From Escherichia phage Pollock, in the sequence record NC_027381.1: 64,000 nt of DNA; one strand, 5' to 3'. Both the position numbers and the translations under genes were made by a program. Below, piece after piece: positions 16 through 64,000 of the stretch. The notes under the pieces were generated by a model that made no database searches, was not told where the DNA came from, and was given only the letters and a program-made list of their open reading frames with translations. The stretch's first letter is position 1. Each line of letters starts with the position of its first letter.

Positions 16-222
16 ATGAAAGATGAATTAATCATCATTTTAAATGAAATATGGTCATTACCAGAATACCAAAATATACGTGGTCCTAAGGAAGAATTAT
101 GTAGAAGAATAACATGTACCGGAGTTCACTGTACAAATTGTCCTCTTGGTTATTTCTTAAAAGACGAAGATTACGTCTCTCAAATCCATAAAATATTGGA
201 AGTCATTAATCATGAAATATGA
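16..222 (+). CDS. small Cys-rich protein, member of a 4-copy paralogue family (probable Zn-ribbon)
   Basis: 68 aa; N-terminal MKDELIIILNEI motif shared with ORFs 1367 and 1558; 4 Cys (C-x4-C-x4-C-x2-C); 3' end overlaps start of next ORF by 11 nt. Confidence 0.4.
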   Translation: MKDELIIILNEIWSLPEYQNIRGPKEELCRRITCTGVHCTNCPLGYFLKDEDYVSQIHKILEVINHEI

Positions 223-6317: not shown

Positions 6318-6650
6318 ATGAGTAAACCAAAAATTGAAATTGAAAAGATTGATGCTTTACGTAATGCATTTAATGCAATGTACGTATCTCATCAAGAAAT
6401 ATCTGTAGGTGATATTGTTATTCTACACCCTTCAGTTCCGGGAATTTTTAAAGTTCCTACTGAAGAACGTCCGGGTATCGTTACTAAATTTCTACCAAAA
6501 CCAATGTATGCGTATGAAATGGCTGACGATACACGTCCAAGCCATCCTTCTTCAGCAATACAATATGATTGTGTAATCAATATCATTAATGACGATGGTG
6601 AAATTGTTCCATTCTTAATGGATTCTCGTCGCCTCCTTAAAGTTAATTAA
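6318..6650 (+). CDS. hypothetical protein
   Basis: 110-aa ORF followed by terminator. Confidence 0.4.
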   Translation: MSKPKIEIEKIDALRNAFNAMYVSHQEISVGDIVILHPSVPGIFKVPTEERPGIVTKFLPKPMYAYEMADDTRPSHPSSAIQYDCVINIINDDGEIVPFLMDSRRLLKVN

Positions 6651-6704: not shown

Positions 6705-6788
6705 ATGCGTCCTACAGCTATTAAAAAAGCTATTGAAAGAGCTTTTGCAGCAGGACTTGTTCCTTTTATTAAAGGTAGTCCGGGTATT
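6705..6788 (+). CDS. MoxR-like AAA+ ATPase, exon 1 (ends inside Walker A: ...FIKGSPGI)
   Basis: ATG 6705; reading frame stops immediately after GSPGI (TGA at 6789); the GKS that completes the P-loop is at 7179. Confidence 0.55.
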
Positions 6789-7178
6789 TGATTTTACAAG
6801 ATACCCTAAGCAGTGATGCTTAGTAAAAAATCCCTTGAATTGCTGGAAACCCTTAAAGCTGAATTAACTACTGCGAGTTGAAAAACAAAGCCAATGTTTA
6901 AAAATAATTCAGATATGTAGGCAATCAGCAGCCAAGCTCCTAAGGTTTAGGATATTAAGCTATGGAGAAGGTTCAACGACTAGGCGTAAGCCGTACACTC
7001 AAGTGAGTGGAAGTGGGGGACTCTTTACAAACTTACCACCATGGAATACCTTTTGTATTTGCAAAGAAAGGTCTATGTCGTAAATGTAGTAAAGATGAAG
7101 ATATAGTCTCGTCTTATGTGAAAGCATAAGCTGTTTAATAAACAGAGGGTAGCTTAACGAACTACCCTGAAGATTACG
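6789..7178 (+). ncRNA. group I intron 1 (ORF-less), interrupting the AAA ATPase Walker A
   Basis: ~390 nt between exon end (last nt T) and exon 2 (preceded by G); contains AACGACTAGGCG...CTCAAGTGAGTGGAAG core-like element shared with intron 2; exact boundaries approximate. Confidence 0.5.
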
Positions 7179-7421: not shown

Positions 7422-8265
7422 TAAATTAATAGGCATTTATGGGGGAAACCTCATATCTAAAGCTACTTAAAACGGGGAACTCTTAGTAGTGTATATACAC
7501 TAAAGACAATCCGTTGCTAAATAGGAATTAAGATGCAAGAAGTTTGGAAAGCTATTCCCGGATATGAGAAAGAATATGAAATTTCTACTCATGGACGGAT
7601 TAAGAGTTTAGATAGAGTCGTTCCTTGTAAACATGGCACTCGCCTTGTTAAAGGAAAATTATTAAAAACCTATATTAATCGAAAAGGGTATTTAATTGTT
7701 ACTTTATCTAAAGAAAATAAACTGAAAACATATACCGTACATCAGTTAGTTGCTCTTACATTTATTCCAAATTTCATTAAAGGCACAGAAATTAATCATA
7801 AAGACGGTAATAAATCCAATCCAGTATTAGATAATTTAGAAATTAGCAACCCTAGCCATAACCAGTTACATGCTATAGCTACAGGTCTTAAAGCAAAGGT
7901 TGGTAAGAGTAAATACCACAATGTAACTTACATTAAAAACCCACGGGCTAAGAAAAAGTGGGCTGCAAGTATAAGTTATAATGGGGAAAAATCTTTTGGA
8001 TGGAAAACATTTATGACAGAAGAAGAAGCTGCAAGATATGTAGATAAACTTCTTGATGAAATAGGTGATACTTCCCGTTTAAGAAATTTCTAATTAATTC
8101 CTTAAATGCCCAACGACTAGTCGAAAGACGTAGGCTCAAGTGAGTCGAAAAAGTAGCTCCCCAAACAAGTAAAGTTGTGGGGATTGATATAGTCTGCTCT
8201 ATATAGAAATATATAGCTGGATTAATTATCCGGGTAATGATTAACGACCATTACTGAACATAAGG
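7422..8265 (+). mobile_element. group I intron 2 carrying an HNH homing endonuclease ORF (td-like)
   Basis: 7462-7530 CTTAAAACGGGGAACTCTTAGTAG...AGACAATCCGTTGCTAAATAGG closely matches the phage T4 td intron core as recalled; ORF begins right after this element; 3' part has CAACGACTAGTCG...CTCAAGTGAGTCG. Confidence 0.65.
7533..8093 (+). CDS. HNH homing endonuclease (intron-encoded)
   Basis: 186 aa; N-terminal WKAIPGYEKEYEISTHGRIKS, HNH core NHKDGNKSNPVLDNLEISNPSHNQLH, C-terminal AP2-like DNA-binding region. Confidence 0.8.
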   Translation: MQEVWKAIPGYEKEYEISTHGRIKSLDRVVPCKHGTRLVKGKLLKTYINRKGYLIVTLSKENKLKTYTVHQLVALTFIPNFIKGTEINHKDGNKSNPVLDNLEISNPSHNQLHAIATGLKAKVGKSKYHNVTYIKNPRAKKKWAASISYNGEKSFGWKTFMTEEEAARYVDKLLDEIGDTSRLRNF

Positions 8266-8955
8266 TATAAACTGTTGGACCGTATGGTAGGACAAACCAA
8301 ATTACATCCTAGTGTTTATATTGCTGCTGCTGGTAACAAAGATACAGATGGAGCAATTACTACTACTATGAGTAGTGCAACTCTATCTCGTATTGTTAGT
8401 ATGGAACTAGAAGTTAACTTTAATGATTGGGCTGTATGGGCATTAGCCAATAACATTGACCATCGCATCATGGGATATCTTCAGTTCAAACCAGAAGCAT
8501 TCCATAAATTTGACCCTAAAAATCTTAAAGAACCTTTTCCATGCCCACGTACATGGGAGTTCATTAACCGTGCTATTAATGGATTAGATGTATCTTTAAA
8601 TTCTGATTTGGGTTTATTGTCTGGAATTATTGGTAATGGCACTGCTCGTGAATTTATTGAGTATTGTGCTATCTATGGTGAGATTGCTTCCTTTGAAGAA
8701 ATTATGTCTAATCCAGAAAGCATTGTCATCAAAGACAGACCAGACATTAAGTATGCATATGCTGGTTTTGTAGCTTCTCGCATTACCCCTGAAAATGCAT
8801 CTCAATTAATGAAATTCATTAATCGACTGCCCGTTGAATTTCAGATTGTAACTTTGAGTAATGCTTTTAAAGCTAAACCTCTCATTTCTCAAGTTCCAGA
8901 AATAATGGAATGGATTACTCGTTATGCCAACGAGTCAGGTGAAGGGATGCTCTAA
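8266..8955 (+). CDS. MoxR-like AAA+ ATPase, exon 3 (C-terminal part)
   Basis: AVQAAA | (YKL)LDRMVGQTKLHPSVYIAAAGN continues the AAA fold after Walker B; ORF track start 8275 is a TTG; 5' boundary approximate. Confidence 0.5.
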   Translation, partial: YKLLDRMVGQTKLHPSVYIAAAGNKDTDGAITTTMSSATLSRIVSMELEVNFNDWAVWALANNIDHRIMGYLQFKPEAFHKFDPKNLKEPFPCPRTWEFINRAINGLDVSLNSDLGLLSGIIGNGTAREFIEYCAIYGEIASFEEIMSNPESIVIKDRPDIKYAYAGFVASRITPENASQLMKFINRLPVEFQIVTLSNAFKAKPLISQVPEIMEWITRYANESGEGML

Positions 8956-60307: not shown

Positions 60308-60384
60308 CGGAATGTAGCACAGCCGGGTAGTGCATCTGCTTTGGGAGCAGAGGGTCATAGGTTCAAATCCTATCATTCCGACCA
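60308..60384 (+). tRNA. tRNA-Pro (anticodon UGG)
   Basis: hand-folded cloverleaf: acceptor CGGAATG/CATTCCG, anticodon loop TTTGGGA, T-loop TTCAAAT, encoded CCA. Confidence 0.75.
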
Positions 60385-60389
60385 AATTA

Positions 60390-60467
60390 TTCCCGTTTAG
60401 CTTAATTGGTTAAAGCACCCGACTCATAATCGGATGATTACAGGTTCGAATCCTGTCACGGGAACCA
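60390..60467 (+). tRNA. tRNA-Met or Ile2 (anticodon CAU)
   Basis: hand-folded: anticodon loop CTCATAA, T-arm ACAGG-TTCGAAT-CCTGT, encoded CCA; exact 5' end ambiguous by 1 nt. Confidence 0.65.
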
Positions 60468-60471
60468 AAAT

Positions 60472-60547
60472 GCATCCTTAGCTCAATGGATAGAGCAGTA
60501 GCCTTCTAAGCTATTGGTTACAGGTTCGAATCCTGTAGGATGCACCA
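60472..60547 (+). tRNA. tRNA-Arg (anticodon UCU)
   Basis: hand-folded: acceptor GCATCCT/AGGATGC, anticodon loop CTTCTAA, T-loop TTCGAAT, encoded CCA. Confidence 0.75.
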
Positions 60548-60552
60548 TATTA

Positions 60553-60637
60553 GGGAGTATGGTGAAATTGGTAAACACAAGGGATTTAAAATCCCTCGCT
60601 TAATTGCTTACGAGTTCGAGTCTCGTTACTCCCACCA
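60553..60637 (+). tRNA. tRNA-Leu (anticodon UAA)
   Basis: hand-folded: acceptor GGGAGTA/TACTCCC, anticodon loop TTTAAAA, long variable arm, T-loop TTCGAGT, encoded CCA. Confidence 0.75.
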
Positions 60638-61491
60638 AATTAGTGCTCTGGTATATTATGTTTAACTCTTAGGTTATGCACAGTATTACAACAGATTGGG
60701 TCATCTGAAATCAGAGCACTAATCCTATATGAACCAGGTATGAACAACTTACTTAGTATTAACAATTCCGCATAGGGGTATGTTTGGGTTGTTGGTGGTA
60801 AGTAGCTGGTTAGAATCCAGCATGGTTCATTAATTAATTGCCATTCTCTTATGGCGATTGGGATAGCACGCTGGCTCTGCTTAAACCAGCATACAACAGG
60901 TAAGAGCACTGAATGTTGACTGGCTTAGCATACCAAATCCAACATTGTTGCCGCAGTGCTCTTACCGTTGTAGCGACCCTGCAACACCGAAGACCGAAGC
61001 TTTTCCTTCCCTGCTTTTTGGGAATAGCACTTCAAACAGGTATATCCTGTATATGTATCAAAGGCGTAAAAACTGGAGATACCAGAGTACTAGAACTCTG
61101 TTACCAAACTCAGGGAGTGATTGGCCTAACCAATCCAACATCCTATCAATGAGTGTACTGAGATAACGTGCGGAGGTTTACACTGTAGCCGGTGTAAATA
61201 GAGAAGACGGCAAGATAGCTACTTGTTCTTAGTGCACTCTTTGATAGTTTTCGTGAGCGACTTTGCGGACTTTTTAGAAACTGACCTCAAAGATAAATGC
61301 AAACGATGATGTTGTTCTGATGGCGGCGTAATAGCCTATAAATCAGCAAGGTCTTCCGATTCCTTGTAAACAAATTCGGCGCACTGGCCCGGTGTGATTA
61401 ATAATGGGCAACTACATCCCTCTAAGGGTATTTAATTAAGTATTCTTAAAGGGATGGGTACTCTCTATCTCCGTAAACATGTCAACTCTTT
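60638..61491 (+). other. ~0.85 kb apparently non-coding, structure-rich region (candidate structured RNA or cis-acting DNA element)
   Basis: no convincing ORF; multiple long inverted repeats (13-bp perfect GGTAAGAGCACTG/CAGTGCTCTTACC at 60899-60965); visibly more GC-rich than flanks; bounded by tRNA-Leu and a strong terminator. Confidence 0.3.
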
Positions 61492-61520
61492 GCCTCTATT
61501 AATTAGAGGCTTTTTTTTTT
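61492..61520 (+). terminator. strong rho-independent terminator
   Basis: gcctcta-ttaat-tagaggc hairpin followed by T10. Confidence 0.7.
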
Positions 61521-61534
61521 ATCCCAATTACTGC

Positions 61535-61588
61535 CTTACGCTTACGCGCTTCCATCGCTCACTACGTTCGCTTGGAGCGCCCGCTTCA
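61535..61588 (+). promoter_or_regulatory. GC-rich CGCTT-repeat cluster upstream of early gene (candidate promoter/operator)
   Basis: CGCTT occurs four times in ~55 nt (cttacgcttacgcgcttcc...cgttcgcttggagcgcccgcttcagg) in an otherwise AT-rich genome. Confidence 0.25.
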
Positions 61589-61612
61589 GGCATTATTGTA
61601 GGAGATTTTATA

Positions 61613-62641
61613 ATGGCTTCCCCTTGCGAAATGCTAGGTTATGAAGAAGGAATGAGATTTGTTGTAGTTAGTCCTAATGAGGAGTTCTCAGTAGGAGATA
61701 CTATATGGCTACATCATGATGATAAATCTCATTGTCCTCTCTTCCGAGATACTGAAGAAGATAATGAAGATGCTAATACCGATTACTGTTATTTAAATAA
61801 TGTAGCTCCTTATTCAGAATCTCATACTCTTGCTTATAACCGTGGATTCAGAAAAGGTGATATTTTATTAGTTACCGAAGATGATGAAGATGAAGATGCA
61901 TTAGCAGGAGATATTGTTACCTTCATCCATGATGATGGTGATACTTGTCCTAAATTTAAAGTACATAGAACTGGTACTGAAGAATATCTCTATCTAGGCT
62001 GTATTGATAGTCTGAAACCAAAAGTTGGCCGTAAAGTTCGTATCATTTATAACTGTACTGCAGGTCATCCATCTGGTTCAGAAGGCATCATCGAAAAAAT
62101 AGATGCAGATGGTGATTTAATGATAAATGTTGATGGTACGTGTTGCTTTCATCATCCATATTCTTGTGTTGTATTTGGTTATTCAGAAGATGAATTATCA
62201 GACAATACAAAATCTGAACCAAAAACAGAATGGACTACTAAACCAGCTTCTGAATGGAAAAAAGGTGATAAAGGAATTGTTCGAGGACAACAGAAATCTG
62301 ACCAACACAATTTCAATATTGGTGCAGAAGTAACCTTTATATCTCATGCTTGGGAAAACAGAGGTCGCTTTGAATCCCCCTCATTCCATCGTTCTCAGAC
62401 AGTTGAATATGATTTGATTGAACCAATTGAATCAAATAAACCATCTGAAACCAAACCAACAGTAGTAGCTGTTGATGAACTTACGGATGTCTCTGGTAAG
62501 TACAAATACTTTATTGATGGTGATTCTATTGAAGTAACTTTAGTTGGTTACTTTGAAGGGGAACCTATCTGTGCATATAAAGACAGATGGGGAGATACTC
62601 AAGTATTCGTTGCTAAGCCTTCTCTACTAGTAAAAGAATAA
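61613..62641 (+). CDS. hypothetical acidic protein (early)
   Basis: ORF track start 61454 rejected because the terminator lies inside the extension; ATG 61613 preceded by GGAG RBS; DEDEDA-type acidic stretches. Confidence 0.45.
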   Translation: MASPCEMLGYEEGMRFVVVSPNEEFSVGDTIWLHHDDKSHCPLFRDTEEDNEDANTDYCYLNNVAPYSESHTLAYNRGFRKGDILLVTEDDEDEDALAGDIVTFIHDDGDTCPKFKVHRTGTEEYLYLGCIDSLKPKVGRKVRIIYNCTAGHPSGSEGIIEKIDADGDLMINVDGTCCFHHPYSCVVFGYSEDELSDNTKSEPKTEWTTKPASEWKKGDKGIVRGQQKSDQHNFNIGAEVTFISHAWENRGRFESPSFHRSQTVEYDLIEPIESNKPSETKPTVVAVDELTDVSGKYKYFIDGDSIEVTLVGYFEGEPICAYKDRWGDTQVFVAKPSLLVKE

Positions 62642-62888: not shown

Positions 62889-62996
62889 TAATAAGGGGTA
62901 CATCTAGTACCCCATTTCATAAATTACTATTAAACCAATAGTAAATACCTCTATTAACCACCATCTCATATCCCAATCTCCATTAGGAATAAACCA

Positions 62997-63287
62997 ATGA
63001 ATTTAGATTTATACATACTGATATTAACCAGTATTGGATTTATCTTTGGTTGGATTGTAGGAAGATTTAACTATAAAAAGAAATTACTTAAATGTATTGA
63101 AGGAATAGAATTTAAAGGTACTTCTAATAATGAATATTTTACTGCTAGTATGTATAAGGGAATTGATGCTCTAAAGATATACTTGAAAAGTATTATACTA
63201 GATAACAAAGTAGGTAAATCTTATCTATTAGAATTACATTCTAACAAAGATTTATTATCTAAATCCTCTAAAAAGAATAATAAATAA
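62997..63287 (+). CDS. hypothetical small membrane protein
   Basis: 96 aa; N-terminal hydrophobic helix; very AT-rich. Confidence 0.3.
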   Translation: MNLDLYILILTSIGFIFGWIVGRFNYKKKLLKCIEGIEFKGTSNNEYFTASMYKGIDALKIYLKSIILDNKVGKSYLLELHSNKDLLSKSSKKNNK

Positions 63288-63422
63288 TAAAGTATTACTG
63301 TCAATATGTAATTTAATACAGTATGTATATTTATCTATTATTTTTAAGAGGGTTTAGATTTTTACTATAATTTTGTCTCATGTTAGTAATAATGCACACA
63401 ATCATTCTGTAAGCAAAGTACT

Positions 63423-63433
63423 CCCCCCCCCCC
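63423..63433. repeat. homopolymeric C11 tract
   Basis: 11 consecutive C in an AT-rich intergenic region upstream of ORF 63509. Confidence 0.9.
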
Positions 63434-63508
63434 ATACTTCACACATTGATGAGTCTTCGACTCTAGTGGAGCAATGGTGCTCTACTTAATCATGATTAGG
63501 AGTATGTT

Positions 63509-63844
63509 ATGAAACCTGTTAACTCTATCGGTATCTTTGGTGCTGTATCTTCCTCTACTGTATCTGCATTGAATGCAATTGAACGTGGTGCAGTAGCTGT
63601 AGCTAATACTGCTAACATGGCAGTAGCTCTTACTGAATGGGGTAATGAGGAGATTGAGAACCTTCGTCATCATCGTGCTATGAAGCGTGAAGTAGAAGGT
63701 GAAATCTTCCGAACCAAGTATGTAATGGAAGCAGCTAAAGAAGTAGCTGAAGTACATGCAGAAGCCAATAAAGCTATGGAGAGTGCATCTCCCGAAGTTA
63801 AAGCAGTATTTGATGCATTAGTAGCTAAGCATCTCAACAAGTAA
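63509..63844 (+). CDS. hypothetical protein (Ala-rich, helical)
   Basis: 111-aa ORF; biased codon usage; followed by hairpin aagcctactc-ttcg-gagtaggttt. Confidence 0.4.
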   Translation: MKPVNSIGIFGAVSSSTVSALNAIERGAVAVANTANMAVALTEWGNEEIENLRHHRAMKREVEGEIFRTKYVMEAAKEVAEVHAEANKAMESASPEVKAVFDALVAKHLNK

Positions 63845-63850
63845 TTACTA

Positions 63851-63873
63851 AGCCTACTCTTCGGAGTAGGTTT
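63851..63873 (+). terminator. terminator-like hairpin
   Basis: cctactc-ttcg-gagtagg followed by tttaaaaatt. Confidence 0.4.
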
Positions 63874-64000
63874 AAAAATTCTAATTCACACATTACACAT
63901 CAGATAGATAGTATGTACATAAACACATGTGTATCCATACATATCGCTATAACGCTCTAGGAAGCTCTACAATGAGATTAAGGGTAGAGGTAATAGGGTA

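Follow-up and report, generated by a model that had tools for sequence, protein, structure and literature searches.

We found that a run of eleven cytosines close to the right end of the 64,000-nt window (the whole stretch of DNA that was analysed) belongs to the terminal repeat of an N4-like phage and is locked in position to the physical left terminus of the genome, not to the early promoter that follows it. The tract is very probably a functional cis element linked to that terminus. The role that we favour, and to which we give about an even chance, is that of a cis-acting left-end signal from which terminase would cut at a measured distance of about three helical turns upstream.

The C11 tract lies inside a 610-bp terminal repeat

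The tract is located on the plus strand at 63423-63433, between ...aaagtact and atacttcacaca (atacttcaca...), and is separated by 76 nt from the ATG of the ORF at 63509-63844, in agreement with the initial annotation, which had placed eleven Cs about 75 nt upstream of this ORF. It is the sole C or G homopolymer of at least 7 nt in the window, where the longest G run is 6 nt and the G+C content is 36%; at 18% C, about 3.5e-4 runs of at least 11 nt would be expected by chance in 64 kb. Only two mechanical ORFs of 34 and 38 aa overlap the tract, and no credible ORF contains it. Neither a scan for Rfam families and riboswitches at 63288-63508, carried out at the gathering threshold and at E<=1, nor a search for other G or C runs of at least 4 nt near the tract returned anything. 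G-quadruplexes and i-motifs were sought as four G or C runs on one strand, and only the single run was found.

Using megablast, the region was matched to N4-like podophages (Schitoviridae, Humphriesvirinae) near Ithacavirus and Pylasvirus with 80-90% identity. A protein-guided scan of viral contigs recovered IMGVR_UViG_2706796286_000001 (68,365 bp), in which the first ORF is matched at 100% at both ends, and a DNA scan of viral contigs gave no genomes beyond those of the protein-based scan. The window corresponds to nt 4366-68365 of this contig, i.e. to its last 64 kb, and contig nt 1-610 are identical to window positions 63391-64000. The genome therefore has a 610-bp terminal repeat (DTR), of which the window carries the right-hand copy. 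Within this repeat the C11 tract begins after the first 32 nt, counted from the physical left end, its poly(dC) is on the strand that has its 5′ end at the left terminus, and an identical C11 is present in the left copy on the source contig (Table 1).

The boundaries of the repeat can be compared with those of two relatives. The terminus of Klebsiella phage Pylas (ACTTCACACA), obtained with PhageTerm, and the start of the DTR of Salmonella phage As2 (TACTGCACACA) align with the left boundary to within 1 nt. The repeat predicted for Pylas by PhageTerm extends over nt 1-769 and ends 2 nt earlier within the same GGTAATAGGGTA motif, and the 616-bp perfect repeat of As2 starts 1 nt earlier and ends with ...catagggta. 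In this phage, Pylas and As2, the right boundary (contig nt 599-610 in this phage) is thus found in a conserved GGTAATAGGGTA / CATAGGGTA context. The boundary shifts by 0-2 nt within the conserved motif, and this hints at an additional, distinct cis signal for the cut at the right end. We discarded the starts of the FSL SP-058, UTK0001 and UTK0002 records as physical ends: these records have their first base on the tract, and since the end of the SP-058 record repeats the tract plus 20 nt, they are circular assemblies opened there.

Two further observations concern the ends of these genomes. For N4, the literature reports a unique left end and a heterogeneous right end. In IME11, the end homologous to this ‘unique’ left end exhibits three adjacent read-start positions (240, 180 and 102 reads; PMC3896407, Table 3), and it is the other repeat boundary that is sharp, the opposite of what is classically described for N4. 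In this phage, a conserved block at 63340-63375, TTTTT(G/A)A(A/G)GGGTT(T)AGA...TATAAT, lies 20-50 nt beyond the left edge of the DTR. It can be read as a sigma-70-like promoter (TTAAGA-16-TATAAT) aimed into the repeat and is kept in SP-058, As2 and Pylas; this block could be a promoter or part of a junction-processing signal.

Table 1. Features around the terminal repeat (window coordinates) and C-runs at left ends of Schitoviridae and Autographiviridae (nt of the respective genome)
Feature	Position	Strand	Basis or comment
Right-hand DTR copy, 610 bp	63391..64000	+	Identity to contig nt 1-610 (left copy, outside the window)
DTR left boundary, left terminus sequence AATGCACACA	63391..63400	+	Contig start; aligned Pylas and As2 termini
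Conserved terminal CACACA motif	63395-63400	+	Alignment with relatives
A/T-rich variable spacer, 22 nt (19-22 in relatives)	63401..63422	+	Alignment
C11 tract	63423..63433	+	DTR nt 33-43
Conserved post-tract motif ATACTTCACACA	63434..63445	+	AT(A/T)AC(T/A)TCACACA in relatives
Hairpin GAGTC-TTC-GACTC, predicted vRNAP early promoter P1	63451..63463	+	DTR nt 61-73
Predicted early transcription start region GGAGCAAT, predicted +1 at 63468	63468..63475	+	Four bases past the hairpin
First early ORF, 111 aa	63509..63844	+	DTR nt 119-454; phrog_5020 (E 9e-33, unknown function)
Hairpin CCTACTC-TTCG-GAGTAGG then TTTAAAAA, T-run	63853..63870	+	Conserved in UTK0002, SP-058, Pylas and As2
DTR right boundary, conserved motif GGTAATAGGGTA	63989..64000	+	Contig and DTR end with ...gggta
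C9, N4 (EF056009)	nt 32-40		Biochemistry (as cited in later papers)
C7, IME11	nt 33-39		Read-start pile-up
C7, G7C	nt 32-38		Record start; ‘contains terminal repeat’ annotated
C7, phiAxp-3	nt 34-40		Run-off Sanger sequencing
C7, RG-2014	nt 33-39		Run-off Sanger sequencing
C7, LIT1	nt 30-36		Run-off Sanger sequencing
C7, LUZ7	nt 29-35		Run-off Sanger sequencing
C9, S6	nt 30-38		Record start; no repeat annotated
C6, CB1	nt 31-36		Record start; DTR annotated
C11, Pylas	nt 31-41		PhageTerm
C10, As2	nt 32-41		Record start; 616-bp DTR by sequence identity
C11, this phage	nt 33-43		Contig start; 610-bp DTR by sequence identity
C5, T7	nt 26-30		Followed by ATA-GGGGG
CCCCCATAGGGGG, KP34	nt 26-38		Identical to T7 despite unrelated flanks
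C8, T3	nt 26-33		Followed by ATAG
C4, SP6	nt 29-32		Followed by ATAG
C5, phiKMV	nt 26-30		Followed by GTAG

Organization of the left end between the terminus and the first gene

The spacer that separates the terminal motif from the tract differs in sequence among sub-lineages while its length is kept. On its other side, 17 nt separate the tract from the P1 hairpin in this phage. This hairpin has a 5-bp stem and a 3-nt loop, folds in both strands and reads GAGTC-GAA-GACTC on the template strand, with the same C-GAA-G core as the P1 promoter of N4 (GCGAAGC). The promoters of the N4 virion RNA polymerase (vRNAP) consist of a hairpin with a stem of 5-7 bp and a 3-nt loop centred at −11, in which the template loop G(−10)-purine(−11)-A(−12), with a sheared G(−10):A(−12), is closed by C(−9):G(−13), and transcription starts eight nt past −8 (PMC4496689). 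The stem and loop at 63451-63463 are of this N4 type. At position −8, where N4 has a template G contacted by R904 (PMC4496689), the template base here is T, not G, and the cognate polymerase may differ from that of N4. By analogy with the spacing rule of N4 P2 (PMC4496689), +1 would be at 63468, 11 nt after the loop centre.

Perfect hairpins of the C-TTC-G type with a 5-bp stem were counted on the rebuilt contig: 12 are present on the plus strand and none on the minus strand, and shuffled sequences average 0.5. Five of the hairpins (contig nt 61, 682, 1501, 1553 and 3828), all on the plus strand and within the leftmost 3.9 kb, are followed by four bases of any kind and then by the start consensus GGRRYAAT, which is common to the five; their stems differ from one another yet stay complementary. 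As judged from the sequence, this is the N4 pattern, with early promoters confined to the left end. Other C-T(T/C)C-G hairpins are found at contig nt 2315, 5547, 10011, 15874, 63541 and 64266 (in window coordinates, 1182, 5646, 11509, 59176 and 59901), all on the plus strand and without GGRRYAAT. Since T-rich sequence comes after several of them, these further hairpins may serve as terminators or stabilise RNA, reusing the stable GAA/TTC mini-hairpin for that purpose.

A ribosome-binding site is present between GGAGCAAT and the 111-aa ORF, which is the positional counterpart of N4 gp1 and the first CDS as annotated in relatives. Homology of this ORF to N4 gp1 was not detectable by sequence (BLASTP E 0.18, not significant). 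The hairpin that follows it at 63853-63870 is a probable early terminator on account of its sequence, and a simple terminator scan made no call at this position.

A C-run at a constant distance from Schitoviridae left ends

In 12 of 12 Schitoviridae, representing seven subfamilies or genera, a run of 6 to 11 Cs starts at nt 29-34 (mean 31.7, sd 1.4), the left ends being mapped by biochemistry, read starts, run-off Sanger sequencing or PhageTerm in seven cases and taken from record or contig starts in five. The sample as a whole comprised 15 Schitoviridae and 5 Autographiviridae and is a selective set, not an exhaustive survey. The orientation is invariant, C being on the top strand (5′ end = left terminus) in all 12, and the terminus-proximal edge of the run is the best-conserved coordinate, with a standard deviation of 1.4 versus 2.3 for the distal edge. 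With the local composition taken into account, a run of this kind would arise by chance within a span of 9 nt with a probability of 4e-3 to 4e-7 per genome, and the joint chance is about 1e-26 when one genome per subfamily is considered.

The 29-33 nt from the terminus to the tract are unalignable between subfamilies. The distance from the tract to the P1 hairpin is about 24 nt in this lineage, ~50-56 nt in phiAxp-3, N4 and G7C, and ~100 nt in LIT1. Because the promoter distance and the intervening sequence vary while the terminus offset is constant, the tract is tied to the end and not to the promoter. The initial annotation had listed a genome-end-related feature among its possibilities, and this proposal is supported by the position of the tract, which starts 32 nt from the left edge of the DTR and is kept there family-wide. 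The rule also held in Vibrio phage VCO139, the record of which does not start at the end: the sole C run of at least 7 nt in its right 2.5 kb (67034-67040) has a C7GGTACCTC flank identical to that of LIT1 and stands at the start of the ~1974-bp region for which double coverage was reported by Fouts et al. We encountered three exceptions, namely Presley, in which the run is interrupted and shifted (CCCTCCCCC at nt 41-49), JWAlpha, the record of which starts ~27 nt further in, and DSS3phi2, in which no C-run was found near the first gene.

This phage thus exhibits the left-end arrangement of the Schitoviridae, i.e. a DTR of several hundred bp with an oriented C-run, a hairpin promoter and an early gene inside the end. 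In N4 and other Schitoviridae, the same oriented C-run is likewise in the DTR, 29-34 nt in, and upstream of the hairpin promoter and early gene. The tract is nevertheless longer here than in N4-like phages outside the Humphriesvirinae (C11 versus C6-C9), it is followed by ATAC and not by the GGT or TGT of other Schitoviridae, and P1 is far closer to it (24 nt versus about 56 nt in N4). The CTACCCCACCTT sequence of N4, G7C, LIT1 and phiAxp-3 is absent from this phage, which has ACTTCACACA in its place. A second conserved left-end motif, CTACC(C)CACCTT, closely precedes the first promoter hairpin of N4, G7C, IME11, LIT1, phiAxp-3 and RG-2014 and is absent from the lineage of the window (cf. N4 nt 60-80). 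Most lineages also have recurring short repeats of the ACAC type close to their ends.

Similar runs at Autographiviridae left ends

At the left ends of T7, T3, SP6, phiKMV and KP34 (five phages from four subfamilies, T7 and T3 both being Studiervirinae), a run of 4 to 8 Cs starts at nt 26-29 on the same strand and is followed by (A/G)TAG. Autographiviridae are also podophages with short DTRs, their left end enters first, and their C-run is near the end on the same strand. The C-run followed by ATA in this phage resembles the Cn-ATAG of T3, T7 and KP34, and the likeness includes the flanks: T3 has AAAGTA-C8-ATAG, Pylas AAAGTA-C11-ATAC and the window AAAGTACT-C11-ATAC, so that the AAAGTA(CT)-Cn-ATA context here is like that of T3 and T7. 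On the other hand, Autographiviridae belong to a different family, their runs are shorter (4-8), the offset is 26-29 versus 29-34, a G-run often comes after and generates a palindrome, and the combination of nt 26-29 with (A/G)TAG contrasts with the start at nt 33 and ATAC seen here. In phiEco32 and T5, two unrelated DTR phages used as controls, there is no C run of at least 4 nt starting at nt 26-34. Since the Autographiviridae cases are individually weak (P of 1e-2 to 6e-2, except T3), the extension beyond Schitoviridae is only a lead.

Length variation of the tract

Comparison with related genomes, as the initial annotation had advised, revealed C8-C11 at the homologous site in every relative recovered, in 454, Illumina, Sanger and metagenome assemblies. 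Because of this recurrence across platforms, the tract is real and not a miscall, although its exact length may be off by ±1; the initial suspicion of an assembly artefact can be dismissed, the tract being conserved in independent assemblies and on different platforms. In GenBank, IMG/VR and metagenomes, a length of 8 was seen once at the homologous site, 9 about eight times, 10 about four times and 11 about six times, and identical flanks carry 8, 9, 10 or 11 Cs in different genomes. The expectation that the tract would be slippage-prone was borne out by this range between near-identical flanks: it is slippage-prone, or error-prone. At the same time its length is bounded, never falling below 8 in this lineage or below 6 in the family (6-11).

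These properties bear on whether the tract has any function at all. Homopolymers are error-prone and three GenBank relatives are opened exactly at the tract, as would be compatible with a neutral run expanded by slippage or with an error of sequencing or assembly. We find such an explanation hardly credible for a run that was seen in more than 20 independent assemblies, on four platforms and in both DTR copies, that respects a minimum length throughout the lineage and that keeps the same offset where the flanks have diverged beyond alignment.

Phase-variable homopolymers are known from bacterial contingency loci and from the poly-G tracts of Campylobacter phages. These are likewise long G or C runs with lengths that are polymorphic among relatives. 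Unlike contingency loci, the tract lies neither in a reading frame nor in a core promoter, varies in length only within bounds and is locked to a genome end, not to a gene. The initial annotation had envisaged a phase-variable promoter spacer, and a related possibility is a phase-variable or upstream element belonging to the first early promoter, in which slippage of the tract would tune the expression of ORF 63509. The variation in length between identical flanks and the position of the tract 17 nt upstream of the P1 hairpin speak for such an element. However, a scan of 62900-64000 revealed no sigma-70-like promoter spanning the tract (total hits were not above shuffles), and the tract occupies −45 to −35 when counted from the start predicted for P1, whereas N4 vRNAP recognises −17 to +1 only (PMC4496689). 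The tract is also in no credible ORF, and its distance to the promoter ranges from about 24 to 100 nt across lineages with a constant distance to the terminus, which does not fit a promoter spacer. We therefore abandoned the spacer proposal and regard a phase-variable element of any such kind as highly improbable.

A candidate signal for the left-end cut

Our preferred reading is that the poly(dC).poly(dG) block, which starts about three helical turns (32 bp) inside the terminus, would act as the fixed reference of end formation. The packaging machinery (terminase, possibly with the portal) would recognise the oriented C-run in duplex concatemer DNA, and a cut at a measured distance upstream of it would generate the left end, which would be the last to be packaged and the first to be ejected. 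Terminase itself would then be the reader of the signal, cutting by measured distance. Only a minimum run and the terminus-proximal edge would matter, and length drift by slippage would therefore be tolerated. In tailed phages, the last DNA in is the first out. The left end of N4 is injected first (PMC4496689), from which we infer that it is the last packaged and is made by a final, precise cut.

The mode of action that we propose resembles that of pac1 of herpesviruses, a cleavage and packaging motif that acts in cis for cutting by terminase. In duck plague virus (DPV), 32 bp separate this poly(C)-containing motif from the S terminus, and the cut is made at a distance (PMC10763189). In both cases a poly(C) cis element is found ~32 bp from a terminus, here with 32 nt preceding the tract, and the terminases are of a homologous class. 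Since pac1 consists of an A/T core between two C-runs, whereas in this phage the C-run stands alone, no other being found within 100 nt, the tract would work like pac1 and is not a member of that class of elements; moreover, the two are very distant, realm-level relatives.

Two sets of observations count against the cutting-signal model, namely the exceptions Presley and DSS3phi2 and the difference in offset between families (26-29 versus 29-34). Terminase binding in T7 and T3 (pacB) reportedly maps elsewhere in the concatemer junction, which also counts against it. Other phages have short cis elements that act from a distance of a few helical turns to position or license cleavage by terminase, such as cosQ and cosB of lambda and the pac sites of P22 and SPP1. 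They have no sequence resemblance to the tract, and they serve cohesive or headful ends, not short DTRs.

Locking of the tract to the end equally fits a role in ejection or in end replication. For the former, the strongest competing reading, the tract would serve as a handle on the leading end, held by an ejected virion protein (the N- or C-terminal domain of vRNAP, or a gp51/gp52-like protein) or by the portal or tail channel. The left end enters first, and early transcription requires gyrase although the DNA is linear, which is accounted for only by the statement that the genome must be ‘topologically constrained’ (PMC4496689). The vRNAP stays membrane-anchored and has a large C-terminal domain without known function, ‘possibly binding DNA’ (PMC12633501). 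Further points in favour of a handle are that the tract is just upstream of P1 and keeps a fixed place at the leading end in two families whose DNA is internalised with transcription, left end first. We nonetheless think that holding of the tract in this manner is unlikely, for the structures of DEV and N4 describe no DNA-end contact and a packaging signal more directly explains the nucleotide-level link to the cut position. The accompanying proposal, that anchoring of the first DNA would allow supercoiling of the leftmost ~500 bp by gyrase and thereby extrusion of the hairpin promoters, appears to us just as doubtful, as T7-like phages keep the C-run without having hairpin promoters or needing supercoiling.

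For the latter, i.e. end replication or concatemer formation, the G-run on the 3′-ending strand would be a GC clamp or a fold-back site that stabilises the terminal repeats once annealed or primes repair synthesis at the end. A fold-back is feasible only in N4 and S6, in which the bottom-strand 3′-terminal CCCC can pair with the G-run (S6 z = −2.4). In contrast, the termini of this phage and LIT1 have no complementary run, and folding does not exceed that of shuffles (z = −0.6, 0.0 and −1.0); for this phage, DNA folding of the region on both strands was no better than shuffles. A clamp would need neither a homopolymer nor a fixed strand, yet the orientation of the run is invariant, and we consider this role improbable.

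The cutting-signal reading also has a broader form, in which the C-run would be an ancient ‘ruler’ shared by short-DTR podophages and read by a homologous terminase or portal for a final cut about three turns away. We put this forward as a tentative possibility, one with perhaps a quarter of the weight of a certainty.

Other features of the window

A group I intron (Rfam RF00028, 101 bits) is present on the plus strand at 6778-7130 and is followed by an ORF of 186 aa (7533-8093) with an HNH-type homing-endonuclease signature (...EINHKDGNKSNPVLDNLE...). The intron and the HNH ORF are located between ORFs 6318-6650 and 8275-8955, and the second of these ORFs has the appearance of the C-terminal portion of a gene that has been split. 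A cluster of four tRNA genes (Pro-TGG, Met-CAT, Arg-TCT and Leu-TAA), spaced 4-6 nt apart, is found on the plus strand at 60308-60637, towards the right genome end. The ~800 nt after this cluster (60640-61450) have a raised G+C content (~0.40) and no convincing ORF, and only weak tRNA- or tmRNA-like Rfam signals (E about 0.08) were detected, at 61278-61380; the region could contain non-coding RNA, either degenerate and tRNA-like or of another kind. A T10 at 61511-61520, in the 5′ extension of ORF 61454-62641, ranks second in length among the homopolymers of the window. Because the PHROG match to the protein of this ORF begins at residue 54, the T10 is probably intergenic, ~95 nt upstream of the real start.

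Significance of the end-locked C-run

We found no description of an end-locked C-run in N4-like phages in the searchable literature, leaving aside the classical papers on the end structures of N4, T7 and T3 (e.g. Ohmori 1988), and an earlier remark on individual phages is possible. The C-run is unmentioned in the papers on IME11, LIT1/LUZ7, VchO139, phiAxp-3, RG-2014, Schitoviridae taxonomy, DEV and N4 vRNAP. The searchable literature likewise describes no cis-acting packaging or cleavage signal for N4-like phages, for which our analysis nominates the C-run as a specific and easily mutable candidate.

Determination of the constant offset provides a simple rule for N4-like phages: a lone C-run upstream of the first hairpin promoter places the left terminus 31 ± 2 nt upstream. 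The rule locates the ends and the start of the DTR in Schitoviridae genomes and metagenomic contigs that were deposited as arbitrarily opened circles, and the location of the ends matters for annotation, for the rebooting of synthetic genomes and for the characterisation of therapeutic phages. The tract also bears on the puzzle of how the first ~500 bp of the linear N4 genome become supercoiled. Together, the left ends of T7-like phages and the parallel with herpesvirus pac1 suggest a general measured-distance logic for terminase cuts. If the ‘ruler’ reading is true, a sequence rule would predict physical ends across two large phage families, and these phages would share the logic of herpesvirus pac1, possibly as a relic of a common Duplodnaviria packaging signal.
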